IMG/VR virus record: IMGVR_UViG_3300012931_000015
Span: 99,579-163,578 of that record
Origin: a virus
Reading direction: 5' to 3' (one strand)
Length of the DNA stretch: 64,000 nt
In this document: positions 23,342 to 55,334 of the stretch, piece after piece
Layout: every line of letters begins with the position of its first letter
Numbering within the stretch: position 1 is the stretch's first letter
The notes under the pieces: model-generated
Databases searched by the model: none
Seen by the model: the letters and a program-made list of their open reading frames with translations, nothing else
What the model was told of the DNA's origin: nothing
Position numbers and translations under genes: made by a program

Positions 23342-24022
23342 TTACCATATTTTTTCCAATATAGATATAATCAATATTATTTGTTTTTCAGAAAACTTCC
23401 AACGAATCCCATTCACTTTTGAAAACCATTCAAAAGGTGTATTATGTCTCTCCTCACTCATTGAGCAAAAATCTGCACACATTTCAGCAACATAAATATC
23501 AGGCATCTTGGTAGCATCTATCATTCCATTAGGAATAGTAGTTCCATCACGACTATTAATATCTAAAATATTTTCTTTTCTATCTTGCCAATACTCCGGG
23601 TGGTGTGGGCTATTCGTTACGTGGTGCTCCGTTGCTTTATACAAATTTTTTCTAATATCATCTGAAATATCAAACTTAATTTTATTATCGTTGCAATAGT
23701 AATCCCAAGTAATAATTATATAAGGTGTTAATTCAGGTTCTTCTAATTTTAATTTATCGTGATACCTTGCATTTTCAATTAAACCTATAAATCTATCACC
23801 AAATTTATCTTGAATAATTCTACAATATTTTTGAACTAAATTTATATGATTGTGTGTTCTTTTATAATACCAATTAGTCATTTCAGGTGTTATAATTTTA
23901 GAAAGGGGATTATCAACTGAAGATACATAAATAATATCATTTTCTTTTAAATCAATATTATCTAATCGTATATTTTCTTTTATCTTTAATTTATAAAGTT
24001 TTTTCATTTTATAATATTCCAA
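23342..24022 (-). CDS. DUF5662-like HD-fold protein with N-terminal shared tag
   Basis: H...V, HD..K, HH....HHPEYW and MP....EM.AD; N-terminal LYKLKI...LKENDIIYV. Confidence 0.7.
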   Translation of the reverse strand: MEYYKMKKLYKLKIKENIRLDNIDLKENDIIYVSSVDNPLSKIITPEMTNWYYKRTHNHINLVQKYCRIIQDKFGDRFIGLIENARYHDKLKLEEPELTPYIIITWDYYCNDNKIKFDISDDIRKNLYKATEHHVTNSPHHPEYWQDRKENILDINSRDGTTIPNGMIDATKMPDIYVAEMCADFCSMSEERHNTPFEWFSKVNGIRWKFSEKQIILIISILEKIW

Positions 24023-24437
24023 ATTCTCTTATACTTATCCATTTAGAAGTAGTTTTTTCTTTCCCATCATACACATCAAAGTATTTTATTACTTTATTAT
24101 TAATTTCTAAAACATTACAATAGTGTCCTGTATTCAAATAAGGGACTTGAATTGCTAAAAAATTATTTCCTCTTGGCATAGGAATTTGAGGGGATAAATA
24201 TTTTATCATAGAATATCCGGTAGCTTTCTGAAAAGCATTCCAAACAATATAACCATTATCAAAGCAACCACTTTTTTTAAGAAACTCTGCAAAAGTTTGA
24301 GGTGTATAATTGAATCCTTTATTATTAAGCTCATTAGTAATAGTTGTTAATAAACAACCATAAACGCCAATTGAAGTTCCTTTATCATACTCATAATTTT
24401 TCCATAGGGGGTCTGACTGTAAATATCTTGTTATCAT
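24009..24437 (-). CDS. C39-like cysteine peptidase
   Basis: YLQSDP.W, IG..GC, TP, GHY and YFD (Cys-His-Asp). Confidence 0.7.
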   Translation of the reverse strand: MITRYLQSDPLWKNYEYDKGTSIGVYGCLLTTITNELNNKGFNYTPQTFAEFLKKSGCFDNGYIVWNAFQKATGYSMIKYLSPQIPMPRGNNFLAIQVPYLNTGHYCNVLEINNKVIKYFDVYDGKEKTTSKWISIREFGIL

Positions 24438-24662
24438 ATATTTTTCCTTTTATTTTTTTACCATTTGAACATTATACAATGTATTACAAAAGCAACAAAA
24501 CTAAAACCAAATACATAAAACATCCACGGATAAATACTACCATCAATTGTCTTTTTAATGCTCAAATACAAATAAATTGCTGTTGAAAGCATTATACCAC
24601 CAAACAACACTCTTACTAAGAAAGAAAGAATTTCCATAACTTTATTTTACCTCTTTTATACT

Positions 24663-25019
24663 TTAATTTATTTCTTCATAAGTTTCTTTAAAAATATCTG
24701 GTTTACAAGGATAAAATTCTCCGGCTATACCTTTAATTATATAATCTCCAATAGAAGCTAAATGATTCCCTTCCAAAGTAAATATTTTCAACCCGTTTTC
24801 TTTCACAACCTGTTCATAATCTTTCCATGACCATTTTTTTGCAGAATCATGTAAACCTGTAAAAGCAATAATTTCTTTTAAATTATCACCTTTCCAAATA
24901 ATAAACTCTACCTTAACAGGTTTTTTTACAGCTTTGCCTATTTTAATACTACTACAAAACATTTCAATGCCTCTACAGTAGTAATAGGCGGAACAATTTT
25001 TACATTCATAATTAATCAT
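24663..25019 (-). CDS. conserved phage protein (PGDYG-like)
   Basis: TLEG...GDYIIKG..GEFYPCKPDIF..TY. Confidence 0.75.
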   Translation of the reverse strand: MINYECKNCSAYYYCRGIEMFCSSIKIGKAVKKPVKVEFIIWKGDNLKEIIAFTGLHDSAKKWSWKDYEQVVKENGLKIFTLEGNHLASIGDYIIKGIAGEFYPCKPDIFKETYEEIN

Positions 25020-25037
25020 TTTTATATCCTTTATATT

Positions 25038-25502
25038 TTATTCTACACCAAAAATGAATTTTATTCCTTTTGTTGCCAAAGCTTTTTGACCTTCTGAATT
25101 ATCCTTTGAAGATATACGCATCGTGTCAAATTGATCTGGTTCTAACTGTCTAAACCTGTGGTAGTTATCAGTAGTATCTACTTTTCCATATTTATATCCA
25201 TGATCTTTAAGCCAAGCTTTACTTTCACCCACACTAAATTTGTTGACATCAAATAAAATTGATTGAACTTCAGAAGCCTCTTTTAACTTCATTTCAACAT
25301 ATAATACATCGCCTTTCTTCAATGTCAAGCTTTTTTCTAAAAAAATATCTCTATCTGCTATAAGTTTTACTAACTTTTTACTTTCTATCATGCCATCTAT
25401 AACATCTTTTTTCTTCTTTTCTGTGCCTTGATTTTCTGGAACATCCACTGACCCTGTAATATCGCTTGAAACTTCTAATTCATTTAAGTTTTTATTTTTC
25501 AT
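25038..25502 (-). CDS. putative internal head protein with shared tag
   Basis: start moved to MKNKN (AGGA SD); LKKGDVLYV..LKEA tag, then a VQSILF..WL..HGYK..RFRQ domain. Confidence 0.6.
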   Translation of the reverse strand: MKNKNLNELEVSSDITGSVDVPENQGTEKKKKDVIDGMIESKKLVKLIADRDIFLEKSLTLKKGDVLYVEMKLKEASEVQSILFDVNKFSVGESKAWLKDHGYKYGKVDTTDNYHRFRQLEPDQFDTMRISSKDNSEGQKALATKGIKFIFGVE

Positions 25503-25515: not shown

Positions 25516-26460
25516 TTATTTATTATTTTGGTTAAAAATGTAATCAAAAACATTAGCAGATATTTTTTCTGGTAGAATATCATACAAATTATATTCTAAG
25601 ACAAAATTCCAATCTAGTTTATCTAGTTTTTCTAAATTTTCTTTTTTAGGTATTAGTCTTAGATTCTTTAAAGACCAACAATTTTTAAAGTCTAAATCAT
25701 TCATAGAAGTATATTCGTATTTTGAATGAGGAATAATATGATCCACGTGCAAAACATCTTTTTTAAGAAAATCATCAACAGTATAACCATAAGGAAGAGT
25801 AGATAATAGATGATTAATTAATTCTTCGGGTGTATAAGACAGAGCTTCAAAAGTTGGTTTTTCTTTTGATTTACCTTTTAGTGCATCTCTTATATTTTTG
25901 GAAGTTCTTCGCTTAATTTTAAACACTAAATCTTCTTTATATTTCTCATTTCTTCGCTTATTGTTTCTTTTATTAACCTCTTTTCTATTTTTCTTTTTAT
26001 ATTCTTTACTTTTTTCTATAAGTTCTTTTCTATTTTTTTGATAATATTTCTGTCTGTATTCTTTTTCTTTTTCTTGAGTTTCTGGACTTTGCCTGTATTT
26101 TCTTTTTCTTTGCAAAATAATTTCTCTATTTTCTTCATAATATTGTTTTGACTTTTCTTTATTATTTTTATGATACTCTCTATCTCTTTCATTTAATTTT
26201 TCTTTGTTTTTTTCTCTATACTGTTTTGCATAATTAAGTTTTTTATCTCTATTATTCTTATAATATTCTTTTTGTTTTTCTGATATTTTATTTTTATTTT
26301 TGTTATAAGATTCTTTTTTCTTTTGTTTTACTTTATCATTATTTTCTAATCTATATTTTTTATTATATTCTTTTGCCCATGCTTTAAGTTTTTCTTTATT
26401 TTTTTCCTTATATTTTTTTTGGGATTCTTTTCTTTTAATTTTTCTTTCTTCTTCTGTCAT
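25516..26460 (-). CDS. Lys-rich HNH-like endonuclease
   Basis: K/E/Y helical repeats, then HVDHIIP...NLR....EN..K. Confidence 0.75.
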   Translation of the reverse strand: MTEEERKIKRKESQKKYKEKNKEKLKAWAKEYNKKYRLENNDKVKQKKKESYNKNKNKISEKQKEYYKNNRDKKLNYAKQYREKNKEKLNERDREYHKNNKEKSKQYYEENREIILQRKRKYRQSPETQEKEKEYRQKYYQKNRKELIEKSKEYKKKNRKEVNKRNNKRRNEKYKEDLVFKIKRRTSKNIRDALKGKSKEKPTFEALSYTPEELINHLLSTLPYGYTVDDFLKKDVLHVDHIIPHSKYEYTSMNDLDFKNCWSLKNLRLIPKKENLEKLDKLDWNFVLEYNLYDILPEKISANVFDYIFNQNNK

Positions 26461-26471
26461 ATATTTTCTCT

Positions 26472-26975
26472 TTAAGGAATTTGAAGAGCACCATATCCAT
26501 TTAAAGGAAACATTGGAAAAATTTCACTGACACTGAAATGCGCTGAAATTAATAATGTATCATCCCCACTATAATCTAAACTTAATGTGTCTCTACCCAT
26601 ATAACGAAGTCCCGTGAATCGAAAAGAAATAGTTGGTATTCCTATATCAAGGTCATCCATCATTAAAATTGCTGTTTGCTTTGCCAGTCTCTGGTTATCA
26701 CGAAACACTTTTGTCTCAAAATTCCATGAAAGGGCTTCCAGTGTCCCCAAAAACATCTGAATAGTTCCAAGTGTATCTTCTATAAATGTAATTGTTATAT
26801 CTTCTAAAAATTCAAAACCTGTAATACATTTAGTTTGTTCATCAACAGTAAAATTATAAGTAGGTATGCTACATTGTGTAATATACGGACTTACGAAAGG
26901 AAAGGTTGGAAAAAGCATAACCCATCTATTTTTATTTTGATCTTGAATGCTATATTGTACATCTAAAATATTCAC
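26472..26975 (-). CDS. tail tube-like / baseplate protein
   Basis: NRW...P, ITITFIED and LDYS pattern of gp19/gp54-like proteins. Confidence 0.5.
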   Translation of the reverse strand: MNILDVQYSIQDQNKNRWVMLFPTFPFVSPYITQCSIPTYNFTVDEQTKCITGFEFLEDITITFIEDTLGTIQMFLGTLEALSWNFETKVFRDNQRLAKQTAILMMDDLDIGIPTISFRFTGLRYMGRDTLSLDYSGDDTLLISAHFSVSEIFPMFPLNGYGALQIP

Positions 26976-30377: not shown

Positions 30378-30965
30378 TTAGTCAAATTCTTCATCATTAA
30401 ACTTATCTGCTAATTCTTGCCAATTAACTTTATTTAATTCACTAGGGCTATCCATGTCAGGTGAACCTTTTGGGTAAAATTTCATAAACCATTTCTTTAT
30501 GCTATTTTTATCCCAAGATTTAATTTTCTTCTGCATAGCAACTCTGTCTTTATATATTTTTTCTTCATTATCAGCCCATAAAGCCATATTCCAAGTTTCC
30601 CAATTTGTCCAACCATTATATGATTCTTTCAAATTATTTTTAACAGGAATATAAACTATATCACCCTTTTCAAGTTCTATGTTTTCAATTATTTTATTTT
30701 TTGTGATTATTTTTTTAACTAATTTCATTTCTTCCACTTTCATACTCGCAATTCCTTCTATATATTTTTCTTTATTTTTAAAAAATTCATATTCTTCTTC
30801 ACTAGCAAAACCACCCCAAATATCTATATCCATATTAGGATTTTCTTTTTGAAAGACCGAAGCAATAGCATATATATCTTGCTGTGTAACTGCCCCTTTA
30901 AATAGTATTTTTTTATTTGGAGCATCACAAATAGCATAAAATTGAAATTCTTCTTTCAGTTTCAT
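30378..30965 (-). CDS. putative internal head protein (internal tag plus YNGWTNWETW domain)
   Basis: LEKGDIVYI...LKES precedes a conserved phage domain. Confidence 0.6.
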   Translation of the reverse strand: MKLKEEFQFYAICDAPNKKILFKGAVTQQDIYAIASVFQKENPNMDIDIWGGFASEEEYEFFKNKEKYIEGIASMKVEEMKLVKKIITKNKIIENIELEKGDIVYIPVKNNLKESYNGWTNWETWNMALWADNEEKIYKDRVAMQKKIKSWDKNSIKKWFMKFYPKGSPDMDSPSELNKVNWQELADKFNDEEFD

Positions 30966-30970: not shown

Positions 30971-31495
30971 TTACTTCCACTTATTACCTTCGGTTAAACC
31001 ACTAAACAAAGAATTTTTTTTACTTCCTGAACCGTTTTCAGATATAGCCACTTTTTTCATTCTTTTCTTAGCTTCTTCAACTTTATCAGCAGGTTTTTTT
31101 TCTTCTGCATCTTCTTTATCTTCAATTTCTGTTTCTTCTTTTACTTCTTCATTTTCGTCTTCATCATTATCTTCTACTTCATTTCCAACTTCTTCTTTTT
31201 TAGCACCGCATTTTTCTTGAATACCTGTGTCATCATCTTCTACATTCTGCTCATCACTATCCATAGAAGTATCTTCTTCTTTTTTTGCTCTAGCTTCTTC
31301 AGCATCATCAGCAGTGAACGGCTTCGCTTGTTTTCCCCCGAAGTTTTCTGAATTATCTTCTTCTTTTACTTTAAAGAATAATTCATCTTTTGCTTCAAGA
31401 ACATACTTACCTAACTTTATTTCTCTACCTTCAGGTAATACATATTTTTTTAAAACACTAACCTTTTGTTTTTTTTCTTCTTTTATAATACGCAT
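30971..31495 (-). CDS. acidic prohead core-like protein
   Basis: E/D/K-rich, many xKE/xxE sites, degenerate tag. Confidence 0.55.
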   Translation of the reverse strand: MRIIKEEKKQKVSVLKKYVLPEGREIKLGKYVLEAKDELFFKVKEEDNSENFGGKQAKPFTADDAEEARAKKEEDTSMDSDEQNVEDDDTGIQEKCGAKKEEVGNEVEDNDEDENEEVKEETEIEDKEDAEEKKPADKVEEAKKRMKKVAISENGSGSKKNSLFSGLTEGNKWK

Positions 31496-31540: not shown

Positions 31541-32077
31541 TTATAAATATCCGCGATCGCTCTTACTCAAATATAACATTTCCACATTTGCCTCTAACGG
31601 AGAATCTTTCTCACTATGAGAAAAACTTATTCCGTCAAGTTTAATAATTTTACATTTTCTAAACCTTATTGCATTTCTTGTAGGAACTTCTGCTCCACCT
31701 TCTTCTATATCAATAGGCTGAACAATTACATCAACACGCAAAGAATCATCGGGTAATCTAGCACCTGTTTCAGGATCACAGCTTGCATCTAACCACTGCT
31801 TTAATTGATTATAGCAACTCCAGCTTTTTGGTACATCAAAAGTAAAAGTAAAATGCTTAGTTTCTGTATGACCCCCCGTTTTCTCAAAATCTAAACCATG
31901 ATATGATCGAGTGTAAACTCCTTTTTCTTCACCTGGAACTTCAAAAGTTTTAGCTCTTATAACTAATTGAGTAACTCCATCTCCTTGTGAAAAAGGAAAA
32001 CCATTTGGGAATATCAGATTATAATGACACTTCATCTGGTCATCACCTAGAACATAAGCTGTATCTATACCTGCCAT
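31541..32077 (-). CDS. tail tube protein (gp19-like)
   Basis: size, position downstream of the sheath, and F.VP, FTFTF, L.QW and DP.TG motifs. Confidence 0.7.
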   Translation of the reverse strand: MAGIDTAYVLGDDQMKCHYNLIFPNGFPFSQGDGVTQLVIRAKTFEVPGEEKGVYTRSYHGLDFEKTGGHTETKHFTFTFDVPKSWSCYNQLKQWLDASCDPETGARLPDDSLRVDVIVQPIDIEEGGAEVPTRNAIRFRKCKIIKLDGISFSHSEKDSPLEANVEMLYLSKSDRGYL

Positions 32078-32715: not shown

Positions 32716-34590
32716 TTATAAAATAGTATTAACATTAACTTCACCCTGCGGTAGTCTAATAACTTCAAGTTCTGTTTTCTCACTTGTAGGTGTAGCCTGA
32801 AATACTATAACTGCTTTAAATTTTCGCTGTTGCAATATTGAAGTAGTATTAATTCTATCATCATCTGCTAAACCAGCTAAATAAGTACAATATCCATCTG
32901 GATGATTTGCATCTCCACGAAGTATAGGATCAATCATTATTGTAAACTTACTTTCAAAAAGCTGTCTTCTATATCTATCATTAAACTTAAATTCCTGATC
33001 TCTTAAAATATCGTTGACAGTCTGATAAATAATTAAGTTCAACAATCGTCTAGTTCCTATAAAACTTGTATCCGTATTTGTAGTAATAGCTGTTCTATCA
33101 CCATAAGTCATATAACCATATTTTGGGTCATAAACATGAGGATTTAATCTTGCATCATCTAAAGCCTGAAGCTCTCCACCAACTATATCTGTAAACTCAT
33201 GTTCAAGTTCTTTAATACCTGTTCCAAGTTCTCCACCATAATTTCCATCATTTGTTCCGGCAGGAGCAAGACTATTAAATACCGGACTCATTTTTGCCAT
33301 ATTTCTTGCATCTCTTCCAACCAAAGAAGTCCAGAAGTAAGTACCCGAAACATAAGGATTTTCAACTCTACCCCAATTACAATAGAAAGCCATTTGATCT
33401 GTATTTATACTATAACCTGCTTTTGTAGCAATAATAGCAGTTGCACTAGCCTCACCAAAAGGCATTGTAACAACACCGAACGCTTTATATAATTGATAAG
33501 TCGTAACTAAATCATATATTTTTGCTATACATGAAGCTAGACCTGATGTATCGACAAGTAAATCAGCACTGTAAGTATTTTTCTTTTTAGCATAATCCCA
33601 ACTTAAATTACGCTCTGTTGCTGTAATTGCAGAACCTCGTTTACCGCTTGCTAAGTTTGTATAACTTCCTTCAGTTGTAATTGCAGTATGAGCACCTGCA
33701 TAGTTAGTATTTACAACATACGTTAAATACATATCTTCTTCAAAAACTTTTCCGATGTAAACAGGTCTACCAGCATCATTCTTTTTAGTTTCTGTTAAAC
33801 TAAACTCATAACGCCCTACATAAGCTACATTAGAATTATCATCAATTTCTTGTAAATCAACTGTATAAATTCCATCAGCACCAGAAGTTCTACTTATAAG
33901 TTTTGCCTTTAACCAAGTTGCACTTGGACTAATAGGAGTAAGTATAAATCTTATATCATCACAATCATAAGCATACTGAACATATATTTCAGTTCCACTT
34001 GCAGGAGCAGTATCAAAAACTAAAGTTAAAGCTCCCGTACTTCTTACAAGCTGTGATCCTGTATCTAAAACACTTGCTGTTAAAACTTCTGTTGCTACAT
34101 TTGAAGGTGTAACAGTATATTCAGTTTCAACATCATCGCTGTCAATAAGTATTAATTTTGTAAGTGATACATTGACATAAGGTAAATTAGTTAAAGTAGT
34201 TGTAAAAGTAACGGTTGAACCATCACCTGTATCAACTAAATCCCTAACAGGAAATTCATCAAAGTCTAAATTTGTTAAATCAGGTATACCAGCAGTTAAA
34301 GCATGAAAGCCATCAACTTTTGAAGCAACTCCACCAAATTTTGCATCGCTAAAATAAGGAGCACAAATCCAAGCAGGAGCGGTTTTAACGTATTCAATTA
34401 CTTCCATTACTTCATCATAAGTAGAAGATGGTTTTCCCAAAAATTCAATTGCTTCAAATTCTGAGCTTATCTTACGAGGAAGTTTTGTACCTCTTGATGC
34501 TTCTACTACAAAATAACCAATTTCTGTTGCATCTAAAGTATTGTAAGATGCCAAGTCGATTTCCTGTACGCTTGATCTATAAGTTGCCAT
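32716..34590 (-). CDS. contractile tail sheath protein
   Basis: N-terminal VQEIDL; C-terminal APAG...G, L....LNP, YGDRT, FI..RRL, FKFND. Confidence 0.9.
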   Translation of the reverse strand: MATYRSSVQEIDLASYNTLDATEIGYFVVEASRGTKLPRKISSEFEAIEFLGKPSSTYDEVMEVIEYVKTAPAWICAPYFSDAKFGGVASKVDGFHALTAGIPDLTNLDFDEFPVRDLVDTGDGSTVTFTTTLTNLPYVNVSLTKLILIDSDDVETEYTVTPSNVATEVLTASVLDTGSQLVRSTGALTLVFDTAPASGTEIYVQYAYDCDDIRFILTPISPSATWLKAKLISRTSGADGIYTVDLQEIDDNSNVAYVGRYEFSLTETKKNDAGRPVYIGKVFEEDMYLTYVVNTNYAGAHTAITTEGSYTNLASGKRGSAITATERNLSWDYAKKKNTYSADLLVDTSGLASCIAKIYDLVTTYQLYKAFGVVTMPFGEASATAIIATKAGYSINTDQMAFYCNWGRVENPYVSGTYFWTSLVGRDARNMAKMSPVFNSLAPAGTNDGNYGGELGTGIKELEHEFTDIVGGELQALDDARLNPHVYDPKYGYMTYGDRTAITTNTDTSFIGTRRLLNLIIYQTVNDILRDQEFKFNDRYRRQLFESKFTIMIDPILRGDANHPDGYCTYLAGLADDDRINTTSILQQRKFKAVIVFQATPTSEKTELEVIRLPQGEVNVNTIL

Positions 34591-40833: not shown

Positions 40834-40849
40834 ATAAAAAGGAAAAAAC

Positions 40850-40987: not shown

Positions 40988-41011
40988 AAAATTATAAAGG
41001 GGAGTATAATA

Positions 41012-44217: not shown

Positions 44218-44250
44218 AAGTATAATCCTTATTTATTTTACTATTAACAA

Positions 44251-45102
44251 TTATAATTCAAAAATTATTAAATATTCTCCTTTAAAAATATTTTTGCTAC
44301 TTCTTTGAAAATGATTTAAATTATTTATACTTCCTAATTTTATTTCTTTAGTATATTTAAGATTTTCTTCTTTACATATTTTAACCATATCATATTTATA
44401 TTTATTATTTATTACAAAACTAAAATATTTATTACAATTAATTAAAGAATTTTTAACAGAAGCTCTCCACCATTTATTCAACCAATCAACATAATTGTTA
44501 TATAATATACTTGAAGTATTTTTGTTATTATATTCTTCAGTATTATAATAAGGAGGGCAGGTAAAAACTGCATCATATTTTTGATTTGGGATAAATTGAC
44601 TTGAATCTTTATTATAAAATATTTTATTCTTATTTGGAAAATCTAAATCATTAAATATAAAAATACAATTTTTATAAGTTCTTTCATCAACATCATTATA
44701 AATATAATTTATATTCATAGCCCCTAACAGTCTATGCCCCCAACCCCCACAAAAATCATAAATTGATTTTATATTATACTCTTCAATAAAAGCCTTAATC
44801 CAATAAGAACTAAAATGTGAAAAACTATTATGAATACCACTTATTTTAAACCCTCTTAAAATTTCTTTATCAGTTAAATCATATTCTGCTTTATTTAAAT
44901 ATTTTATTCTGTTTTCAATAATTTTTCGTCTAATAATAGGATCATTTTTATATAAATAATTTTCATATTCAAAAAAATGAGGCTGATAAGTTAAAATTAT
45001 TTTATTATTACAAGGATTTTTATTATAACTTCCTTTATTATTCTTCAATTTATTAAATTCTTTATTTATTTCTTTTTGAGAATATTTATATTCCAAACCC
45101 AT
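44251..45102 (-). CDS. amino-type (N4C/N6A) DNA methyltransferase
   Basis: SAM-binding YDFCGGWG.RL.G and catalytic FTCPPYY. Confidence 0.8.
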   Translation of the reverse strand: MGLEYKYSQKEINKEFNKLKNNKGSYNKNPCNNKIILTYQPHFFEYENYLYKNDPIIRRKIIENRIKYLNKAEYDLTDKEILRGFKISGIHNSFSHFSSYWIKAFIEEYNIKSIYDFCGGWGHRLLGAMNINYIYNDVDERTYKNCIFIFNDLDFPNKNKIFYNKDSSQFIPNQKYDAVFTCPPYYNTEEYNNKNTSSILYNNYVDWLNKWWRASVKNSLINCNKYFSFVINNKYKYDMVKICKEENLKYTKEIKLGSINNLNHFQRSSKNIFKGEYLIIFEL

Positions 45103-46496
45103 TATAAAACTCTTTTAATTTGAATTATTATATCATTTTCATCCTTAAAACTAAATATTTCTAAATATCTTAAATTATTCTCAATAGCTATTTTTCTTTT
45201 TAAAGGATCAAGAATAGTCCATACATATATAGCTTTTTCATAAAAAATTTTTCTTTTTCCTTTAAAATTTATTTCTTCAAGTTTTTGTGTATATTTTCTC
45301 AATATGTTCTGATGTTCTTCATTTTTAGAATTAAAAGCTTCTTTTCCGTGTGTCCAATTTCCTTGATACTCAATGAATAAATCTTGTGCAGGCAAATAAA
45401 AATCACAAGCGTAAGGATACCTTTTATCATCTCTATACTGTCTTTTTACTTCTTTAAAATTTCTAACTAAAATATCATATATATAGTCTTCTGATGAAGA
45501 AATATTAAAACTGTTGTTTTTCTTTTTTGTATTATATATTTTTTCTTGTACTTCTTTTGTTTGAGTAGGAAATTTAGTTCCATATCTTTCTAAATTTGTA
45601 TTATCTGCTTTTTCTTTAAATTCTTTTATTTGTAAAGCATATTCTTTACCATATTTACCCTTTATTATATTTCTCATTCTTTCTGAATTTTCAAATAAAC
45701 TTTTTACCCCATATTTATTTTCACAAGTATTTTCTTTTTTTATTTTTATATTTTCATTTTGGGATACATTTTCAACTCCATATTTTTCTCTTACAGTATC
45801 TTTTACTTTTTCTTTTATTTCTTCTGCTTGAAAAACATTTTCACATCCGTATTTTTCTAAGTTAGTTTGTTCTCTTTTTGCAATTGTTTCGGGTAAAGAA
45901 AGAGGATATTTTACTCCATACTTTTCTAAATTATTATTTTCTCTAATTTTTTTTATCTCTTTATTTTGCATAGAGTGTTCAACCCCGTACCTTTCTAAAT
46001 TTGTTTTAACAATTTTTTCCCTTATTTCTTCAGATTTTGAGGCATTATCTACTCCATATCTTTCAACACAAGTCTTTTTTCTCTTTTCAATTACATCTTT
46101 ATTTTGTAAACTATATTCTGTTCCATATTTTTCTAAGCAAGTTTCTTTCATTTTTTCTTTAATCTTTTCTGATTTTGCCGGATTATCAACACCAAATTTT
46201 TCTAAATTAACTTTTTTTATTTTGTCTTTAATTTCTTCTGATTGAAAAGCATTTACTACCCCGAATTTTTCTAAAACAACACTATTTCTTTTGCTCACAA
46301 TACAATCTTTATTATTACATCCTATTCTAACTTTAAAAAACAATAATTTCTTAATTAAGATTGTTCCACAATTTAAATGCTTATATGTAATAGTTTGTTT
46401 TTCCCAATCAATATTAATAAATTCATATTCTTTATTATTTACTTCATTTTGTTTAATGAAATGTTTTTTATAATCATCTTCTGTCCATTTTTTCAT
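45102..46496 (-). CDS. repeat-containing PD-(D/E)xK/Vsr-like endonuclease
   Basis: about ten KYGxxN..Q repeats, then CDFYLP..DLFIEYQG.WTHG. Confidence 0.8.
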   Translation of the reverse strand: MKKWTEDDYKKHFIKQNEVNNKEYEFINIDWEKQTITYKHLNCGTILIKKLLFFKVRIGCNNKDCIVSKRNSVVLEKFGVVNAFQSEEIKDKIKKVNLEKFGVDNPAKSEKIKEKMKETCLEKYGTEYSLQNKDVIEKRKKTCVERYGVDNASKSEEIREKIVKTNLERYGVEHSMQNKEIKKIRENNNLEKYGVKYPLSLPETIAKREQTNLEKYGCENVFQAEEIKEKVKDTVREKYGVENVSQNENIKIKKENTCENKYGVKSLFENSERMRNIIKGKYGKEYALQIKEFKEKADNTNLERYGTKFPTQTKEVQEKIYNTKKKNNSFNISSSEDYIYDILVRNFKEVKRQYRDDKRYPYACDFYLPAQDLFIEYQGNWTHGKEAFNSKNEEHQNILRKYTQKLEEINFKGKRKIFYEKAIYVWTILDPLKRKIAIENNLRYLEIFSFKDENDIIIQIKRVL

Positions 46497-46647: not shown

Positions 46648-48105
46648 TTAATAATTTAAATTAGAAAGTGTCAACATTCTTATATATTTCTTCTCTACTA
46701 CTTTAGCATCGCCGAAATGTGCTAACGCACCTTCAGTTTTAAAGGTCTGAGGATAAGTAAGAGTACCTGCATCAAACATCTGAATCAAAGTTCCAAAAGT
46801 TATTGCTGAATCAGCTTCATTAGCTGGATTCTTATAGATACACATTATCTCATTATTTGCAACTAAGTTAGCATCAGCAGGACATTTATAAACCTCTGCT
46901 CTACCTATCTTACCTACTAAATGCAATCCAATCTCTGGCTGTGAATAATCATCAGTCCAAGTTTTATTGAATGACAAGTAAGTACAAGCACCCGGCCCCG
47001 CAACGATCTTGCTAATAGCACCACGTTTAAGGTCATTAAATATTGCGTTACCAGCTTTGTTAATATAACCAGTAACCATCTGTGCGTGTTCCCACTCAGA
47101 ATCAGCACCAGCGTTAGCAAAGTTAGTATCCATCATGATAGTAGTATTTGATTTTCCACACCATCTACCAAGCTGTACCGCTCTGTAATCTCTTGCTTTC
47201 ATCAACTCTTCCGCTACGGATTTGGTGAGAATTTCTTTCGCATCGCCAAGACCAGTAGTACCTATAATCAATTCAACAAGTTTTGTATAGCTGAATCCTA
47301 ACGGGCTAATTTTTGCTTCAAGTTTATGCTTAACAATATTAATTTTAGCCTGACCGAACTCATCATAGTTACCTGTATTTTCAGAATCCCAGTTATATTC
47401 AACCTGAATTGAAACGCCACTTGCAGGAGCAGTATCAAAAGTAACACTTACCGAACCACTTGAATAAACGATTGTAGAACTTGCAAGTAAAGTTGATTCA
47501 CTAAAAGCACCATCGCCATCATCAAGAGCTTCATAAGCACCATTAACAACTAAAATAACTGATTTTGTTCTTAACGGAGTAGTAGTCATAGTTGCAGTAA
47601 AAGTAACGGTTGAACCATCACCTGTACCTAAAGTCTGTAACTGTTTTTCCGAAGCGAAATATCTATCAGTTGATTCATAGTATTTTGTACCGTCTACGCT
47701 CGGTGATCTTGTAGGTGTACCGTCATAAACAGCATTTACAAAATAGAAAGTATCGTCAGTTGACAACATAGGAATTTCTCTAAAGATATTTCCTAAGTTA
47801 CTATTCGGAGCACTAAGTCTTATTACTTCCAAAACTTTTTCAGGAGTCAAGCTAAAACTAGATGAAATGCTTGTTTCTTTCATCAGGGCTTTCATGTGAT
47901 TTAACTGATTCTCCATATAAACAGCAGTTTTTCTTTTTTCAGAATCAGAAAGCTTATTCCAGTTCTCAAATAATCTAGGGTATTTCTTTTTCTCAACTGT
48001 TTCCCATTTATAGACTATTTCATCATATCTCTGCTCTCTTGATTTCTCGGCTAACATTGCCTGTTCCTGCAATTTGTCAGCACTTTCTCTCATTACTGTA
48101 CGCAT
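46648..48105 (-). CDS. major capsid protein (T4 gp23-like)
   Basis: N-terminal KW...TA..MENQ...LMKE, then IPM....F; downstream of protease/scaffold, with strong terminator. Confidence 0.88.
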   Translation of the reverse strand: MRTVMRESADKLQEQAMLAEKSREQRYDEIVYKWETVEKKKYPRLFENWNKLSDSEKRKTAVYMENQLNHMKALMKETSISSSFSLTPEKVLEVIRLSAPNSNLGNIFREIPMLSTDDTFYFVNAVYDGTPTRSPSVDGTKYYESTDRYFASEKQLQTLGTGDGSTVTFTATMTTTPLRTKSVILVVNGAYEALDDGDGAFSESTLLASSTIVYSSGSVSVTFDTAPASGVSIQVEYNWDSENTGNYDEFGQAKINIVKHKLEAKISPLGFSYTKLVELIIGTTGLGDAKEILTKSVAEELMKARDYRAVQLGRWCGKSNTTIMMDTNFANAGADSEWEHAQMVTGYINKAGNAIFNDLKRGAISKIVAGPGACTYLSFNKTWTDDYSQPEIGLHLVGKIGRAEVYKCPADANLVANNEIMCIYKNPANEADSAITFGTLIQMFDAGTLTYPQTFKTEGALAHFGDAKVVEKKYIRMLTLSNLNY

Positions 48106-48295: not shown

Positions 48296-50221
48296 TTATT
48301 TAAATCCCATCTTTCCAATCCAGTTAGTGGATTTAGTAGATGCTTCGCTTATTTTTGAAAAATTTCTCTCTTTAAACTTAGAAACTTTTTTAGTGGACTC
48401 TTTTATCTCTTCTTCATCCTCTACTTCAATTTCATCTTCTTCAGTCATAGCTTCATCTTCATCATCAACTATTTCGTCTTCTTCGGTTATCCCATCTTTA
48501 TTTTCTTCGTCATCAATAACATCTTCTTCTTCAGAAATTAGTTTTACTTCTTTTAAAGACTTAATACCAAACTTTTTACACAAAGCACTTTCAGAGATTA
48601 TAGAATCGTCTTTATCTTCTTTTTCAGAGTCTTCCGCATCACCTTCTTCTTCTTTAACTTCTACTTCGTTTTTGTCTTTTGTTTCATCTTCTTTATCATT
48701 ATTTACAAGTTCCTGTTCTAATTTCAGGAGTTTTCGTCTTAATGTTTTAATTGACTCTTTTATATTTTCTTCATCTTCAGGTTTTTTCTCATCAGAAACT
48801 TCGTCAGTCTCTTCTTTTTTTACTTCGACTTCAGCGTCTTTTTTCTCATCTTCTTTGTTGTCTTCAGGTTTAACTTCCTCTTCCTCTTTAACTTTCGATT
48901 TAGCTTTTTTTGAAGCTTCCTGTTTTTTCTTAGCGATAGATGCCTTAACAGCTTTAATTGCTTCTTTAACAACAATCTCGTCTTCGTCAACAACATCTTC
49001 AACCGGAACAACCTCTGCACCTATTACGTCAGTCTCTTCGGTCATAGTTCCATTATCAGCCTCACCCTTAGTAACATCATTAGATTCTTCATCAGAACCT
49101 TCAATTTTTGTATTCTCATCTTCTTCTTTAATACTTTTTTTGATCTCTTTAAATACACTAAGAGATTTGTTATATTTTTTTCTCAAATCTTCAAGCATAT
49201 CCTCTGTCATTTCATCTTTCTTTTTAAAATTTTCTATAACAGTAGCCTGCTCCATGATTGTTCTATTTAAATTTTCAACTAAAATATCTATGGATTTATC
49301 AACCTGCTCAACTAAAGATTTAGCTTCAGTAGCTTCTAAAACTTCTTTTATATCTTCTTTAATCTGCAAAAGTTCATCTAAACCTTCTTTTTTATTCGGG
49401 TTTTTTACGGCTTCTTTTATAGCTTTTCTCTTACTTTCTTTATAATTTGCTAATTCTAACTTTTCAGCCATTTTGTTCGTCTCCTTAAAATTTACATTAT
49501 TATTAGTATTCACCTTTTCTGAAAGTGATATATCTTTTGACATTTTTATTTTATCGTTTTTATCTGTGGTTGTTGAAGGGGGAAGGGTTTTTGAGTTTTC
49601 TTTTACAATATTATCAGATGTAGCTCTAACTCCTTGTGAACTGTTATGTACCCAGTCAGCGAGATGGTCGAGGTCGAAAGAATCCCAACATATAACATCT
49701 ATACCTTCTTCTAAATCTTTGTAATTACTTAGTTCTTCTTCCCTGTATTCAAATTCTCCAAATCCGACTGTCGAAAATTCTATGAAATTTGCCCCTGCTT
49801 TTAAAGCATCTAAAAGTAATTTTCCATTTTCCCCAATTAAGTATAAATCTGCTTTACCTGTCTCTTCTCCTGCTTTAAAATTGTGCCAGATACCACAGGT
49901 GAGAAGCACGTTTTGAGAATCTTCTGCATGATTAGCAAAACAAGATGATCCTTCTGAAACACCTTCCTTTTGTATTCTTTCCCATAATTTTTTCGGGTAT
50001 AAACGCTTGTTGGCGTTAGGAACGTAACGGGTCACGTCAACGCCCTCTAAAACAGCTATTGCATCATACTTTTTACCTTCAGACTCTATTAATTTATTAT
50101 TTTTTTCAAGAATTCTTATATTATCAATATTACTAATTCTTAAAGGAAAACTTTCTATTAAAAGTTTTTTACCCTTTTGTTTAGCTATTTCTTCAAAATT
50201 TTTATACATCGTTTTCTCCAA
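48296..50221 (-). CDS. prohead protease (gp21-like) fused to acidic scaffold
   Basis: NANKRLYP, NH, FSTVGFG and DWV..SS, then ~400 aa of E/K/D-rich sequence; true start may be MYKNF. Confidence 0.8.
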   Translation of the reverse strand: MEKTMYKNFEEIAKQKGKKLLIESFPLRISNIDNIRILEKNNKLIESEGKKYDAIAVLEGVDVTRYVPNANKRLYPKKLWERIQKEGVSEGSSCFANHAEDSQNVLLTCGIWHNFKAGEETGKADLYLIGENGKLLLDALKAGANFIEFSTVGFGEFEYREEELSNYKDLEEGIDVICWDSFDLDHLADWVHNSSQGVRATSDNIVKENSKTLPPSTTTDKNDKIKMSKDISLSEKVNTNNNVNFKETNKMAEKLELANYKESKRKAIKEAVKNPNKKEGLDELLQIKEDIKEVLEATEAKSLVEQVDKSIDILVENLNRTIMEQATVIENFKKKDEMTEDMLEDLRKKYNKSLSVFKEIKKSIKEEDENTKIEGSDEESNDVTKGEADNGTMTEETDVIGAEVVPVEDVVDEDEIVVKEAIKAVKASIAKKKQEASKKAKSKVKEEEEVKPEDNKEDEKKDAEVEVKKEETDEVSDEKKPEDEENIKESIKTLRRKLLKLEQELVNNDKEDETKDKNEVEVKEEEGDAEDSEKEDKDDSIISESALCKKFGIKSLKEVKLISEEEDVIDDEENKDGITEEDEIVDDEDEAMTEEDEIEVEDEEEIKESTKKVSKFKERNFSKISEASTKSTNWIGKMGFK

Positions 50222-50259: not shown

Positions 50260-51282
50260 TTATGTAAAATCAGCATAGTAAAACACAGGACTTTTTTCAT
50301 TTAAAGAATAAATTTTCCAACCTTTATAATTGTTCGTTTTACTTTTTTCATATAAAATATGTTGAAAACCACTCACTGATAATTTTTGTTCTTCACAAAA
50401 ATTTTTTAATCCATAATTAACTTCATACCTTTCATTATTAGGCGAAAAAATAATATAAGTTTCAGTAACTTTACTATTTTTACCTTTTTTTATATTTGAT
50501 AAATGCTCTCTTTGTTCTTTTGTCCAAACTCTTCTTCTATTTGCTTCTCTAATTTTTTCTTTAGCTTCTTCTGAATGTGTTTTACCGTACATACCATTAT
50601 TTTTTCCAAGTAAATTAGGACATTTTTTATTCTTTTTTGAAACTTTTTCTGTTTTTTTAGAATAAAATTTTACTTTTCCTTTTACACCCTCAAGCCAACC
50701 ACTATCTAAATAAGCTTGTAATTCTTCAGCACTAACTAACTTTCTTTCACTACCATTAAAAATCCATTTCAAACCTCTTCTACTATCGCCTGTTTTTGGA
50801 TTTTTTACTCCCTTTTTTGCTTCACTTAACCTTTTTCTGCCCTCTTCTGTAATAAAACTTTTTCCTTTATGTGATTCACTTAATTTAAGTCTAGTTTCTT
50901 TAGAAACTTTTCTATTAGAATTTGCTAAACCAATTTTTTTAAATATAAGCTCTCTATCAGGATGATGGGTAAAGTTATCTTGACCTTCCCCACCTGTTCC
51001 TATATTGTAGCCAACAGGTCTAAAACTATTTAATTCTTTTATCCAGTATCTCTCTTTTTCAATTAATTCTTCTTTAGTCACACAGTTTTCAATTATCTCT
51101 TTTTTAAAGTTTTCTTTTCCATGCTTTTTTATTGCATATTTAATTAATTTTCCAGAACCCCAATAATTCTCAAATTTTACACTTTTTGCATTTCTTTGTA
51201 AATTAAATTTTCCAACATAAATTTTATTATTGATTAGATTAGTTATTTTATAAATAACTCCAAATATTCCTTCATTATTCAA
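50260..51282 (-). CDS. GIY-YIG homing endonuclease with NUMOD3 repeats
   Basis: GVIYKITNLINNKIYVG, YWGSG, GYNI..GG, NGMYGKTHSEE. Confidence 0.9.
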   Translation of the reverse strand: MNNEGIFGVIYKITNLINNKIYVGKFNLQRNAKSVKFENYWGSGKLIKYAIKKHGKENFKKEIIENCVTKEELIEKERYWIKELNSFRPVGYNIGTGGEGQDNFTHHPDRELIFKKIGLANSNRKVSKETRLKLSESHKGKSFITEEGRKRLSEAKKGVKNPKTGDSRRGLKWIFNGSERKLVSAEELQAYLDSGWLEGVKGKVKFYSKKTEKVSKKNKKCPNLLGKNNGMYGKTHSEEAKEKIREANRRRVWTKEQREHLSNIKKGKNSKVTETYIIFSPNNERYEVNYGLKNFCEEQKLSVSGFQHILYEKSKTNNYKGWKIYSLNEKSPVFYYADFT

Positions 51283-51364: not shown

Positions 51365-51661
51365 TCAAATTCTATTCCTTATCACTGTCGCAAAAGGAAC
51401 AATAAATAAATTTGTTGATAAGCCTTTACTATCTGTAGCTACACACTGATATTCTACAATTTTATTATGTTTTAAACTTCTTACTTCATAAAAATCAACA
51501 ACTTCATTAATTATACTGCTGCCTTGTTTAAATTTATCCCCTATTTTAACACCTTTTATTTCTTCAAAACTTTCCTTCATAACTACATAAATTACATCAC
51601 CTTTTTCAAGCTCAACATTTCCTATTTTTCTGTTTTCTTTAATTATAACTTTTTTTAACAT
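51365..51661 (-). CDS. putative internal head protein with shared tag
   Basis: MLKKVII...LEKGDVIYVVMKES. Confidence 0.65.
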   Translation of the reverse strand: MLKKVIIKENRKIGNVELEKGDVIYVVMKESFEEIKGVKIGDKFKQGSSIINEVVDFYEVRSLKHNKIVEYQCVATDSKGLSTNLFIVPFATVIRNRI

Positions 51662-51677: not shown

Positions 51678-54386
51678 TTATTTATATTGTTTTATCACAC
51701 TTCTAACATTGTCAATATAATCTTCCACTTCGGTATCCCCAAATTCTTTCATATCAAACGCAATTCGGTAAATTTCTTCCATCACAGCTAAATTGAGTAA
51801 AGCATTTTTGTTATTCTTTTTTATTGCTATGTCTATTTGCTGATCTACTAAATCTCTATTTCGTTTTAATTTTGCTTTATCAAGTTTTAGTGTTTCATTG
51901 ATTAGATTTACTATTTCTTTATCAGATAAATTTCCATCTTTTGCTACACCGGACTCATTCAATTCATTTTGTTTAGCTTCACTTCTGTAAGTTTTTAAAC
52001 CGCTTTTCATATTTTTGCTACCATATTTTTGTATATAGTCTACAATTTCTTTTTTTATTAAAGCAAGTTCTTTATCATCCATTTTATCAAAATTTCTTCT
52101 TATTATCCTATTTGTTTCTGGTAATGTTCCATTTGTCTGGATACTCATATTACTTGAGTTTGGATATTTGAATCTTACTACTTGATTTCCATTAGCATCA
52201 AGCCCTTCACCTGTTACGGTTATATTTGTACCTTTTAATTCATATTCTTTTTTTGCTTCATTTAATGATTTTCTATCTTTAAATATTTTACTCATAACAT
52301 TATAAGTAGCTTGATCCTTTTCATCTATTTTTTTATTTAACTGTTTATAATTTTTTAATTTAGTTTCTAATGTTAAAAGGTAATGCTCTAAAGTTTTAAT
52401 TGGTGTACTTCTATAATAATCACCCATTTCTTTTTCAACTTCTTTTTCTAAATCAGTTATTTTAGATTCTTTAAAGTTTACATACTTATTTTCTTTTAAC
52501 CAGTCTTTTACTTCAGTATCATACACATTTAATTGTTCTTCAAAAATATCAAACTTTGCAACTAAATTATGTGTTTTTTCTGAATATATTTCTTGCTTGC
52601 TTCCGTTTTTTATTCCCCAAAACTTATAAGGAAAAGCTAATAATTTATCATAATCATTTATTGTGAATCTTATATTTTTAGGTGAAGCTTCTCTTATTTC
52701 TTTTGACTCTTTTACTTTAACAAATTCCCCTGTTCTGGTTGCACGATAAGGTTTAATTTTTTCTTTCTCGTACTTTTCTTTTTCATCTTTTGTAAAAGTC
52801 GTCCAAGTATGCACATTTGAAGAAAAACTACCATTCCTCTTCAGTCCGGCATTACCTGATAAATAATAAAATTTTTCATCTTCTTCTTTCATTTCTTTTG
52901 ATTCTTTATAATATTTTAAAATATTAAACCTTTGTGCGTCATAAAGTTGATCCCACTCTGAATCATGTTCCCCATCTGAATAATCTTTAAATAAATTTTT
53001 ATCATATTTATCAGGAAAATATTTACTAAATTTTTTTCTTTCAGGATGATCTTCAAAAGCAGATAACATATACATCATTACATGCTCTATAGAACTAACC
53101 ACATATTTGTCAGGTTTATTTTCTAATTCAGGGTAATCTTTTAATAATTTTCTATATATTTCTTTTCCATACTGTGTAAATAGTTTTTTAGAAGCAGAAG
53201 ATATGTCTTCTTTTAATTTTGCCTCTCTAAAATTATCCTTTATGCCATTTACTACCGTAACTAAGCTTTCAAATTCCCAATCACCGTTAGGTAGTTTTTC
53301 TCCGAACTGATATATATCTTCTACATCTACTTTATATTTTTTTGCTATATCAACTATCTGATTTTTAGTTAAAGAAAAATAATCTTTTTTACTACCTTTC
53401 TTCATTACTTTTTTAATGTCTAAGGTAATATCACTTTCTTTACTTTCATTTGTCTTTATTCTATCCTGCATACTTTTTAATGCTTCAGTTTCACTTTCAA
53501 GGTCTTTTTTTAATCTTTCAATTAAATCTTTATCATCATCTTCCTGTGCCTGTAAGAGATCACCTTTTAATTTATTTATTGTTTGTTTCTGATCTAAAAT
53601 ATCAGCTTTATCTTGGGCTTCATCTTCTCTCAACTTATTTTCATTTAAATCATTAAAAGGTGGGTTTTCTTTTTCTATACTTTTAATTACAGATTTAAGG
53701 TCTTTATCTTGCAGTTTTGTATCTTTTTCAATAAACTGTAAATCAGAAATCATTAAACTTCTTCTTTCACCGGACTTTACTGGAATATTAAAATAATCTA
53801 AAATTTTTCTTAGTTGACCATCAGAAAACTTATTCCAATTTATAGATTCTTTCAACTTATTTTTTTCATTTTCTTTTATTATGCTTTCACTTTTCTTACT
53901 TAAAATTGTTTTTACTTCATCATCTGTCAAATAGGCATTAAGTTTTACATTCCATTTTTTATCAAAGGATTGTAGCCATCGCTCATAATCCCCGTCTTTA
54001 TTTTTTTGAATAATTTCTTTTACATCTTTCCCATTATATTTTATTTTTCTAGTAATAATACCATTTTTTTCTAAATCCTTAAAAGCGTCTTCTTTCATTT
54101 CTTTTGATTCTTTATAATAAGGTTTAACTCTTACTGCTAAATCTCTCAAGGCATCCTTTGTTATACCATCATTATTCATTACGTTATCATACCAATCTTT
54201 ATATATCGTATAAACACCGGAATAAGGTCTGCCATAATGATATTCTCTGGTTGCCCAATTATAAATATCCTGTAATTCTTTTACATTAAAATCAGCATTA
54301 TATTCTTCAACAAATATTTCTTGACCTTTTTTTAATTCTATACCTTCAATTACACTGTCTTTCTCTACAATTATTTTTCTTAACAT
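51678..54386 (-). CDS. 902-aa multi-module putative internal head polyprotein
   Basis: N-terminal tag; modules separated by KES/xKE/LNE linkers. Confidence 0.65.
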   Translation of the reverse strand: MLRKIIVEKDSVIEGIELKKGQEIFVEEYNADFNVKELQDIYNWATREYHYGRPYSGVYTIYKDWYDNVMNNDGITKDALRDLAVRVKPYYKESKEMKEDAFKDLEKNGIITRKIKYNGKDVKEIIQKNKDGDYERWLQSFDKKWNVKLNAYLTDDEVKTILSKKSESIIKENEKNKLKESINWNKFSDGQLRKILDYFNIPVKSGERRSLMISDLQFIEKDTKLQDKDLKSVIKSIEKENPPFNDLNENKLREDEAQDKADILDQKQTINKLKGDLLQAQEDDDKDLIERLKKDLESETEALKSMQDRIKTNESKESDITLDIKKVMKKGSKKDYFSLTKNQIVDIAKKYKVDVEDIYQFGEKLPNGDWEFESLVTVVNGIKDNFREAKLKEDISSASKKLFTQYGKEIYRKLLKDYPELENKPDKYVVSSIEHVMMYMLSAFEDHPERKKFSKYFPDKYDKNLFKDYSDGEHDSEWDQLYDAQRFNILKYYKESKEMKEEDEKFYYLSGNAGLKRNGSFSSNVHTWTTFTKDEKEKYEKEKIKPYRATRTGEFVKVKESKEIREASPKNIRFTINDYDKLLAFPYKFWGIKNGSKQEIYSEKTHNLVAKFDIFEEQLNVYDTEVKDWLKENKYVNFKESKITDLEKEVEKEMGDYYRSTPIKTLEHYLLTLETKLKNYKQLNKKIDEKDQATYNVMSKIFKDRKSLNEAKKEYELKGTNITVTGEGLDANGNQVVRFKYPNSSNMSIQTNGTLPETNRIIRRNFDKMDDKELALIKKEIVDYIQKYGSKNMKSGLKTYRSEAKQNELNESGVAKDGNLSDKEIVNLINETLKLDKAKLKRNRDLVDQQIDIAIKKNNKNALLNLAVMEEIYRIAFDMKEFGDTEVEDYIDNVRSVIKQYK
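52882..54119. repeat. 32-bp exact direct repeat (52882-52913 and 54088-54119)
   Basis: TCTTCTTTCATTTCTTTTGATTCTTTATAATA, encoding YYKESKEMKE(E/D). Confidence 0.85.
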
Positions 54387-54414
54387 AATGGTTTTTACTT
54401 CCTCTTTTTTATTT

Positions 54415-54786
54415 TTATAAGTAGTTATCTAATAAACTATATAATTTATCTACATCATCATTTTTGAATTTATTCATAACAATATTATTAAATATAGTGT
54501 TATCAAGTAAATTTCTAACAAATTTAGACTTTATTCTATTATTATCTAATAATATCTCATTTTTATATTTATCTTTAAATTTTTTACCTTTCAATATATT
54601 TTCTAAAAAACTGTATAAATCTTTAAAAGACTTTATGTTTTCAAGTTCTAAATCAAATATTTCATCAGAGGTAGTAGCAATATAAGGCATTTCTTTTAAT
54701 TGCTTTTTAGGTTTTATATAAATTGTTTGACCTTTTTTCAGATTAAATTCTTTTATACTTTTAGATAAAATTAACTTTTGTAACAT
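54415..54786 (-). CDS. putative internal head protein with shared tag
   Basis: MLQKLIL...LKKGQTIYI...LKEM. Confidence 0.65.
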   Translation of the reverse strand: MLQKLILSKSIKEFNLKKGQTIYIKPKKQLKEMPYIATTSDEIFDLELENIKSFKDLYSFLENILKGKKFKDKYKNEILLDNNRIKSKFVRNLLDNTIFNNIVMNKFKNDDVDKLYSLLDNYL

Positions 54787-54791
54787 ACTTA

Positions 54792-55334
54792 TTATTTTCC
54801 TTCAGCGTCTTTCTTTACAGCATCTTCTAAATCTTTTAAGAAGGGTAAATAATATTTTGAATCTTTAGGAGATACTTTTTCACCTTTTTTACCTATTTCG
54901 GAAAGATGATCTAATCCCACACGAGGAGCTAAATACTTTGCATAAGGATTTTTAGAGTCAAAATGTTCTAGCTCAACTTCTCGTGAAGCATCAAGTTGTT
55001 TTTTATCAACATCACTTTCAGTTACACCTTTTTCAAAAGCTTTTCCGCCTCTTAAAAAACATTGAACTATTTTATATATTTCAAGCTCTAATTGATGAGG
55101 ATTCATATTTAATTTTTCAGCAAATGAATGTATATCTTTCTCATCATCAGTTATTTCATGTTCTTTTAAATAATCTAGTATTTTAACTCTTATTTCGTCA
55201 GTTATTTTTATATTAGGTAATTCAACTTCTTTTTCAGCTTCTTTTATTTTATTTTTACTTTCAACATAAACAATCTGACCTTTTTCTAAATTCCAATCCT
55301 TTATATTTTCAGTCAATATTATTTTTTTTAACAT
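54792..55334 (-). CDS. DUF5661-like protein with shared tag
   Basis: MLKKIIL...LEKGQIVYVES..IKEA, then VELEH...LDHLSE...YY. Confidence 0.7.
   Translation of the reverse strand: MLKKIILTENIKDWNLEKGQIVYVESKNKIKEAEKEVELPNIKITDEIRVKILDYLKEHEITDDEKDIHSFAEKLNMNPHQLELEIYKIVQCFLRGGKAFEKGVTESDVDKKQLDASREVELEHFDSKNPYAKYLAPRVGLDHLSEIGKKGEKVSPKDSKYYLPFLKDLEDAVKKDAEGK

Follow-up and report, generated by a model that had tools for sequence, protein, structure and literature searches.

A small beta module on unrelated structural-region proteins of an uncultured T4-like phage clade: a candidate docking tag for loading the head

Why would a group of phage proteins that otherwise share nothing carry the same stretch of about 30 residues? 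The question is raised by a 64,000-nucleotide stretch of DNA (the window), the last 64 kb of a linear IMG/VR virus record of 163,578 bp with about 26% G+C and an estimated completeness of 74%. Nearly all genes of the window lie on the minus strand. The original prediction, made from the letters of the window, held that nine proteins encoded here bear a portable tag that targets them to the capsid, and all nine open reading frames are present on the minus strand with the residues it quoted. On balance, we lean towards the view that the tag is a portable docking module that brings accessory proteins into the prohead core of an uncultured clade of T4-like myoviruses.

We built a 32-position profile from the eight clear copies of the tag and ran it against all stop-to-stop frames of the record (2,722 segments). 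The eight corresponding proteins, which we denote A to H (Table 1), scored 46–57 bits, and the next match after the tags reached 9.6 bits. The profile also recovered a copy outside the window, J, at genome positions 26364–26699 on the plus strand (46 bits, E 4e-13), directly upstream of a baseplate-wedge gene (phrog_219). An acidic protein that had been listed as a degenerate ninth copy scored below 1 bit and drops out; the true tags of this genome are those of A to H and J. When a clade-wide profile was used on the same genome, we obtained nine matches at or above 29.7 bits, followed by one at 9.8 bits. No copy was found at window positions 1–21 kb, where the early genes had been said to be free of the motif, or elsewhere among the roughly 260 non-structural open reading frames of the genome.

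An all-versus-all BLASTP comparison of the nine tag-masked proteins gave no pair at E<1e-3, and we therefore regard the cargos as unrelated. Together with the gap in profile scores, this bears out the claim that one motif recurs on proteins of different origin. The tag is at the extreme N-terminus of A, B, C, D, E, H and J, and is internal in F and G. Judging from the aligned copies, it is conserved at the level of protein and not of DNA, because the tag cores share a mean nucleotide identity of only 60%, and 52% at third positions. The D/J pair alone reaches 93%, over a 45-nt core; because these two cores are nearly identical while the cargos differ, the pair suggests a recent duplication of the tag or gene conversion between the two genes.

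From a 38-row alignment of tags, AlphaFold2 predicted four short strands (residues 2–6, 11–13, 16–18 and 23–27) with a confidence (predicted local distance difference test, pLDDT) of about 94 over residues 1–30, in keeping with the beta structure that had been anticipated. The stretch with the cut-type site discussed below came out as low-confidence and disordered. The model thus describes the tag as an independently folding beta module of 27–30 residues, with its predicted strands placed around a near-invariant L-[EK]-[KA]-G-D turn. In a natural protein with two tags, both tags were again predicted to be beta (pLDDT about 76), with a disordered linker between them; the predicted template-modelling score was 0.43, from an alignment of four rows.

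This module is represented in no curated family and in no solved structure. The PHROGs profile and family search returned nothing like the tag, the tag profile gave only chance-level matches to P450 hairpins among PDB sequences, and tblastn of a two-tag protein against 50,697 GenBank phage records gave no match. The motif can therefore stand as undescribed in Pfam, PHROGs and the PDB, and as absent from GenBank phages at the sensitivity of tblastn. Structure searches turned up a weak likeness to SH3 domains and nothing convincing (best Foldseek E 1.2; best VIA-align Z 2.8, against a domain-swapped Nck SH3, with 38 residues superposed at a root-mean-square deviation of 2.9). The family TrkA_C (PF02080) was considered and rejected. 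Single tags reach 13 bits over positions 37–57 of its 71, against a cut-off of 27 bits, and a two-tag protein reaches 29.5 bits only as a sum over positions 37–60; no single stretch passes the cut-off, and only the positions of the terminal hairpin are covered.

Gene order in the phage and its relatives

We asked where the tagged genes lie with respect to the genes of the virion. The phage has, as read from its genes, a T4-type head module in which the prohead protease is fused to a scaffold, since the portal, major capsid protein (MCP) and protease all match the expected families, if weakly, and key residues are invariant. Residues 1–215 of the fusion protein gave weak but consistent matches to Pfam S77 and PDB 5jbl at the same place, and this domain and T4 gp21 have an NKRLYPK stretch in common. 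In an alignment with ten relatives, His98, Ser150 and two N-terminal L-x-E sites of the protease are invariant; L18-x-E20 near the N-terminus of the MCP is invariant as well. A degenerate tag had been suspected at the N-terminus of the protease, but this was ruled out, the secondary phmmer matches reflecting coiled-coil likeness. The fusions of the relatives end in a conserved R-E-G-W, preceded by a conserved block (…CKTL.EAQ.TYL.L…), whereas the acidic tail of the fusion in this genome is much longer and ends differently.

Relatives were not found by every route. Megablast of 10 kb against GenBank phages, a single-protein scan of IMG/VR with the MCP, and a search of IMG/VR for P0025 and P0016 each returned no match. 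A nine-copy profile run against 1.84 billion representative proteins recovered the phage's own proteins and four others only, with no convincing cellular match. One of the four is encoded on a 175-kb NCBI contig with an MCP 57% identical to that of this phage; its tag closely resembles the one of gene A, although its cargo differs. Relatives with MCPs about 35% identical came from IMG/VR and from two contigs binned in a metagenome-assembled genome labelled Candidatus Woesearchaeota. Both contigs (CAYZJM010000001.1 and CAYZJM010000052.1) encode a capsid gene of this phage type and one also has tagged genes; that they fall in this bin may be an artefact of binning or may point to the host. A scan of IMG/VR that started from the tag (alignment A8) gave matches confined to this phage clade.

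In the relatives, the tag has diverged yet is sharper, approximating I-x-I-x-E-[DE]-V-R-I-P-G-T-D-I-I-L-E-[KA]-G-D-K-I-E-V-L-K-E; this RIPGTD…IEV variant differs from the KIGN…IYV variant of the present genome. Each of four complete relatives has 6–10 tags, all on the strand of the MCP and within 13–24% of the genome, and no tag was found outside the structural regions of these four. In at least ten loci the gene order is portal, sometimes a tagged gene, protease-scaffold, one to four tagged genes, and MCP. The slot between portal and MCP is where T4 encodes the core proteins gp67, gp68, gp21 and gp22. The relatives have second arrays of tagged genes, which closely precede the sheath gene or follow the tube gene. 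The window fits this pattern, since A to D are upstream of the protease-scaffold gene, E is between the portal-side genes and the sheath, and F to H follow the tube gene. All tag-bearing loci examined retain the protease-scaffold fusion. The head module also recurs in the relative G005 (92% complete), yet that relative has essentially no tags, which is expected if they mark accessory cargo and not the core scaffold. The expected restriction to late, head-associated genes thus held in part: the tags are found among virion genes, but their arrays also adjoin sheath, tube and baseplate genes.

How varied is the cargo? In a profile search of a clustered protein database (8,000 candidates scored; E<=0.01), we found at least 344 tagged proteins of 80–531 residues, nearly all of them unnamed and metagenomic. 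The best 120 of these carry 130 tags, 61% of which are N-terminal, 29% internal and 10% C-terminal, and nine of the 120 have two or three tags. Their cargos fall into 97 BLAST clusters, as would be expected of a module that can be grafted onto arbitrary proteins. Most cargos are orphans; recognisable ones include a ferritin domain, a GNAT acetyltransferase whose tag is C-terminal, DUF6934 and LPD11, a domain of polyvalent proteins that are predicted to be packaged in the capsid and injected (PMC5512222). Some proteins consist only of two or three tags and charged linkers, among them a 90-residue family with two tags.

Two cargos of the relatives deserve separate mention. At L009:13508-14347 (IMG/VR 3300026120_000157), the tag is followed, in the same protein, by a ferritin/rubrerythrin-like domain (Pfam Ferritin, 4e-26); the gene is two genes after the capsid gene and recalls the ferritin cargo of encapsulins. 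The sole cargo family common to relatives is a domain that precedes the tag (…QGNFGG.NE.QM…QLLKGLATSD…; 60–70% identical), encoded beside the portal gene or upstream of the sheath gene at L028:8802-9392, L022:589-1101, L005:6326-7303 and L027:8270-8902. We found no homolog of it in the present, incomplete (74%) record.

This distribution also bears on a different view of the tag, namely that it is a general small binding or oligomerisation domain (SH3-, KOW- or AbrB-like, or of GD-box type) that binds nucleic acid, a host factor or itself and loads nothing into a particle. Such a domain would be expected to form an autonomous beta module as predicted here, and it would account for the weak SH3 likeness, which includes several domain-swapped dimers, for the resemblance to the last strands of TrkA_C, and for the multi-tag proteins with charged linkers. 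A general domain would, however, have no obvious reason to be missing from the non-structural genes of this phage, from the non-structural regions of the four complete relatives and, as far as convincing matches among the 1.84 billion representatives go, from cellular proteins, and it leaves the adjacent cut-type site unexplained. We consider it unlikely.

Cut-type sites and the role of the tag

If the tag serves head assembly in a phage with a gp21-type protease, sites of the type cut by that protease should accompany it. We found that [LIVMFY]-x-E occurs within 12 residues past the G-D of the turn in 43 of 54 non-redundant tags, and at exactly +7 in 20 of them, against a background of 0.025 hydrophobic-x-E sites per residue. 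Among the database proteins, such a site accompanies 103 of 130 tags. In this genome it follows eight of the nine tags within 12 residues, with none near that of H. The claim that eight of nine copies are followed by such a site thus survives for the nine true tags, J included. Seven of the eight sites (A, B, C, D, F, G and J) read hydrophobic-K-E, and that of E reads F-I-E. Ser or Ala comes directly after the Glu in six cases; B has Met there and C has Leu. The cargo of C contains about ten further hydrophobic-x-E-[SAN] sites and a twice-repeated YYKESKEMKE linker; because of these many sites and the repeated linker, C is possibly a polyprotein cut by the head protease.

Loading into the head is the most likely role of the tag, because its features follow the same logic as those of the T4 capsid-targeting sequence (CTS). 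We infer the steps of binding, packaging, cleavage and ejection as follows. Tagged proteins would be made late in infection, alongside head and tail proteins, and the tag would bind a repeated site in the core or shell, for which the protease-scaffold fusion is the most economical candidate partner. Once the gp21-like protease fires, it would cut at the hydrophobic-x-Glu, usually 4–12 residues past the G-D, and so free the cargo inside the head, from which the cargo would later leave with the DNA. Because the tag may be N-terminal, internal, C-terminal or repeated, the term docking domain suits it better than propeptide. The original notion of a longer, T4-like N-terminal targeting sequence is therefore only half right: a gp21-type site usually follows the tag, but across the clade about 29% of tags lie inside the protein and about 10% at its C-terminus.

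The same sites could be read another way. The tag could be an exosite docking element that presents the hydrophobic-x-Glu bond to the prohead protease, with entry into the head set by something else. Because protease and scaffold are fused here, this partly overlaps with head loading by docking, and both the short fixed distance of the site (+7 in 20 of 54 tags) and the retention of the fusion in all tag-bearing loci would be expected of it. An exosite would, however, release nothing downstream of a C-terminal tag or from a tag-only protein, and G005 has the protease and no tags. Moreover, the protease needs no tag to cut, since conserved L-x-E sites are present in the MCP and in the protease, neither of which has a tag. 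We regard an exosite as improbable.

The position of the second arrays suggests yet another role, in which the tag is an adaptor that is never removed and fixes accessory proteins to the capsid exterior, neck, tail or baseplate. Tagged arrays that immediately precede the sheath gene or follow the tube gene, the location of J before a baseplate-wedge gene and the tags that lack a cut-type site would all fit such an adaptor. The strongest synteny is nonetheless with the protease-scaffold and MCP genes, and 80% of the tags have a site of the head-protease type. Nearly 100 unrelated cargos, among them ferritin, an acetyltransferase and small acidic peptides, would also be hard to fit on an ordered tail or neck. 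T4 internal-protein genes, too, lie away from the head genes. We think this role has a small chance of being correct.

The window also encodes a radical-SAM protein (Table 1), which brings up the possibility that the tag is a recognition leader for a modifying enzyme, as in ribosomally synthesised and post-translationally modified peptides. The radical-SAM genes do not track the tag, however, and for this reason such a leader is disfavoured and seems very improbable: the relative G003 has six tags and no radical-SAM gene, G005 has three radical-SAM genes and essentially no tags, and where both occur they are at least 15–25 kb apart.

Several points weigh against head loading by docking. Many tags are internal or C-terminal, and a cut after such a tag would free no downstream cargo. 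F, G, H, J and the pre-sheath arrays of the relatives adjoin tail or baseplate genes and not head genes, and in the relative G006 the tagged array is about 40 kb from the MCP gene, on the other strand. About 20% of tags, that of H included, have no cut-type site nearby. Where a site is present, hydrophobic-x-E is frequent in these Lys-, Glu- and Ile-rich proteomes, and the sequence pattern of the last strand itself could be a partial source of the enrichment. The clade is known from the sequences of uncultured members alone, and the partner is a candidate. A co-fold of the MCP, residues 1–215 of the protease and the tag scored 0.00 with the fold of the partner uncertain, and weighs neither way.

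A more specific version of docking can be put forward tentatively. The tag may be a folded, position-independent domain that docks on a repeated site of the protease-scaffold protein, or that pairs with other tags through multi-tag linker proteins. The prohead core would then be programmable, and cargo such as ferritin, acetyltransferase and LPD11 would be dosed into it and injected with the DNA, in a manner unlike that of the CTS or of encapsulin peptides. We hold this version to be possible but doubtful.

If the tag does load heads, sequence alone would mark out the set of packaged or injected proteins of a widespread uncultured phage clade. This set would comprise hundreds of orphan proteins in addition to the ferritin, GNAT and LPD11 cargos, and would be a likely source of functions in anti-defence and host takeover. 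Head loading by the tag would also mean that capsid targeting was invented more than once and on different physical principles, here as a folded mini-domain that works at both termini and within a protein, and elsewhere as a short linear propeptide. The tag could serve as a handle to package foreign proteins in phage particles, and the multi-tag linker proteins hint at a way of cross-linking the core.

Other features of the window

The positions of the tagged genes and of the other features identified in the window are collected in Table 1.

Table 1. Tagged genes and other features of the window. A slash marks the bond after the Glu of the putative cut-type site; aa, amino acid residues; nt, nucleotide positions.
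Feature	Window position	Strand	Details
Tagged gene A	54792-55334	minus	180 aa; tag aa 1-32 (nt 55239-55334), then I-K-E/A; cargo has weak DUF5661 match
Tagged gene B	54415-54786	minus	123 aa; tag aa 1-32, then L-K-E/M; cargo without known family
Tagged gene C	51678-54386	minus	902 aa; tag aa 1-37, then V-K-E/L
Tagged gene D	51365-51661	minus	98 aa; tag aa 1-30, then M-K-E/S
Tagged gene E	35910-36377	minus	155 aa; tag aa 1-29, ending F-I-E/S
Tagged gene F	30378-30965	minus	195 aa; 78-aa N-domain, tag from aa 79 to about aa 114-117 (nt 30624-30731), L-K-E/S, DUF7249 cargo
Tagged gene G	25038-25502	minus	154 aa from ATG at 25502; tag from aa 41 to about aa 75-80, then L-K-E/A
Tagged gene H	23342-24007	minus	221 aa from ATG at 24007; tag aa 1-28; cargo DUF5662; no nearby hydrophobic-x-E
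Non-tag acidic protein	30971-31495	minus	174 aa
Large terminase	60228-62351		family search
Prohead protease-scaffold fusion, untagged	48296-50221	minus	641 aa; T4 gp21-like aa 1-215 and acidic/Lys-rich scaffold-like tail
Major capsid protein, gp23-like	46648-48105	minus	Pfam Gp23, weak match
Portal, gp20-like	37204-39156	minus	Pfam Portal_T4, weak match
Tail sheath	32716-34590		family search
Tail tube	31541-32077		family search
Radical-SAM protein	17374-18240
Homing-endonuclease genes (GIY-YIG, HNH, DUF7487-type)	50260-51282, 42487-46496, 55488-56153, 22564-23337
Small island	39382-41760	plus	between portal and capsid regions

Homing-endonuclease genes dot the head and tail module. Three consecutive ones separate the MCP gene from the portal side, and another is located between the tagged operon A–D and the protease gene. 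The first gene of the small opposite-strand island has a lipoprotein-type signal (…LSALIGC…) and is possibly a moron or exclusion gene.

Two short words recur near gene starts. The first, TACTAATA, occurs 37 times in the genome, including at window positions 55379–55387 and upstream of the protease-scaffold and portal genes. It looks like a phage promoter element, because 25 of the 37 copies are in sense orientation within 80 nt upstream of genes, both structural and non-structural. The second, TATAAATA, lies 25 nt upstream of D and 29 nt upstream of E (24–29 nt for D, E and the tube gene). It was considered as a late promoter, but with 101 copies in a genome of 26% G+C the word is too frequent to carry weight, and we dropped that argument.

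Comparison with known systems

A targeting peptide shared by head-internal proteins is established for T4 and inferred for giant phages. The internal proteins of T4 are diverse and have only the CTS conserved among them; it directs these proteins into the scaffolding core, is removed by gp21, and can load foreign proteins into heads (PMC3012670, PMC5694885). IPI, IPII, IPIII and Alt carry it and lose it to gp21, according to Mullaney and Black (1996) as cited in PMC5694885. The tag resembles the CTS in that one conserved peptide is found on otherwise unrelated, fast-evolving accessory proteins of a phage with a T4-like head module, and in that a hydrophobic-x-Glu site, with predicted cleavage, follows 43 of 54 tags in phages that have a gp21-type protease. 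It differs in that the CTS is an N-terminal propeptide of 10–20 residues, whereas the tag is a predicted four-strand beta module of 27–30 residues that occurs at the N-terminus, internally, at the C-terminus and in two or three copies, next to a protease that is here fused to the scaffold. When alignments A1 and A3 were compared by inspection, the tag had no common pattern with the MKTYQEFIAE type.

The propeptides of inner-head and ejection proteins in phiKZ, 201phi2-1 and SPN3US are likewise longer than that of T4, are cut by a gp21-related protease and are sometimes shared by paralogs (PMC5694885, PMC10052503). They have 80–130 residues, are found mainly on paralogs and are cut after A/S/G-x-E, whereas the tag is compact and sits on non-homologous proteins.

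With the TrkA_C hairpin, the GD-box and SH3-like barrels, the tag has in common the pattern P-x-x-D-x-x-L-x-x-G-D-x-hydrophobic-x-hydrophobic and a beta-meander geometry. The match to TrkA_C, however, extends over only about 24 of its 71 positions, and the structural Z to SH3-like barrels is at most 2.8; the likeness is that of a common supersecondary element and not of family membership.

In encapsulins, short portable peptides recruit various enzymes, the classic ones being ferritin-like, into a shell of HK97 fold. The tag described here is portable too, and the ferritin fusion in the L009 relative invites the comparison. Encapsulin peptides, in contrast, are short, extended, usually C-terminal and uncleaved, and have no sequence likeness to the tag, whose binding to a shell is a prediction. 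Finally, MuF proteins and polyvalent effectors resemble the tagged proteins in that a virion module is joined to exchangeable domains that are predicted to be injected, and LPD11 is cargo of both (PMC5512222). Their carrier is a large MuF or portal domain in giant multidomain proteins, whereas here it is a tag of 30 residues attached, for the most part, to single small cargos.

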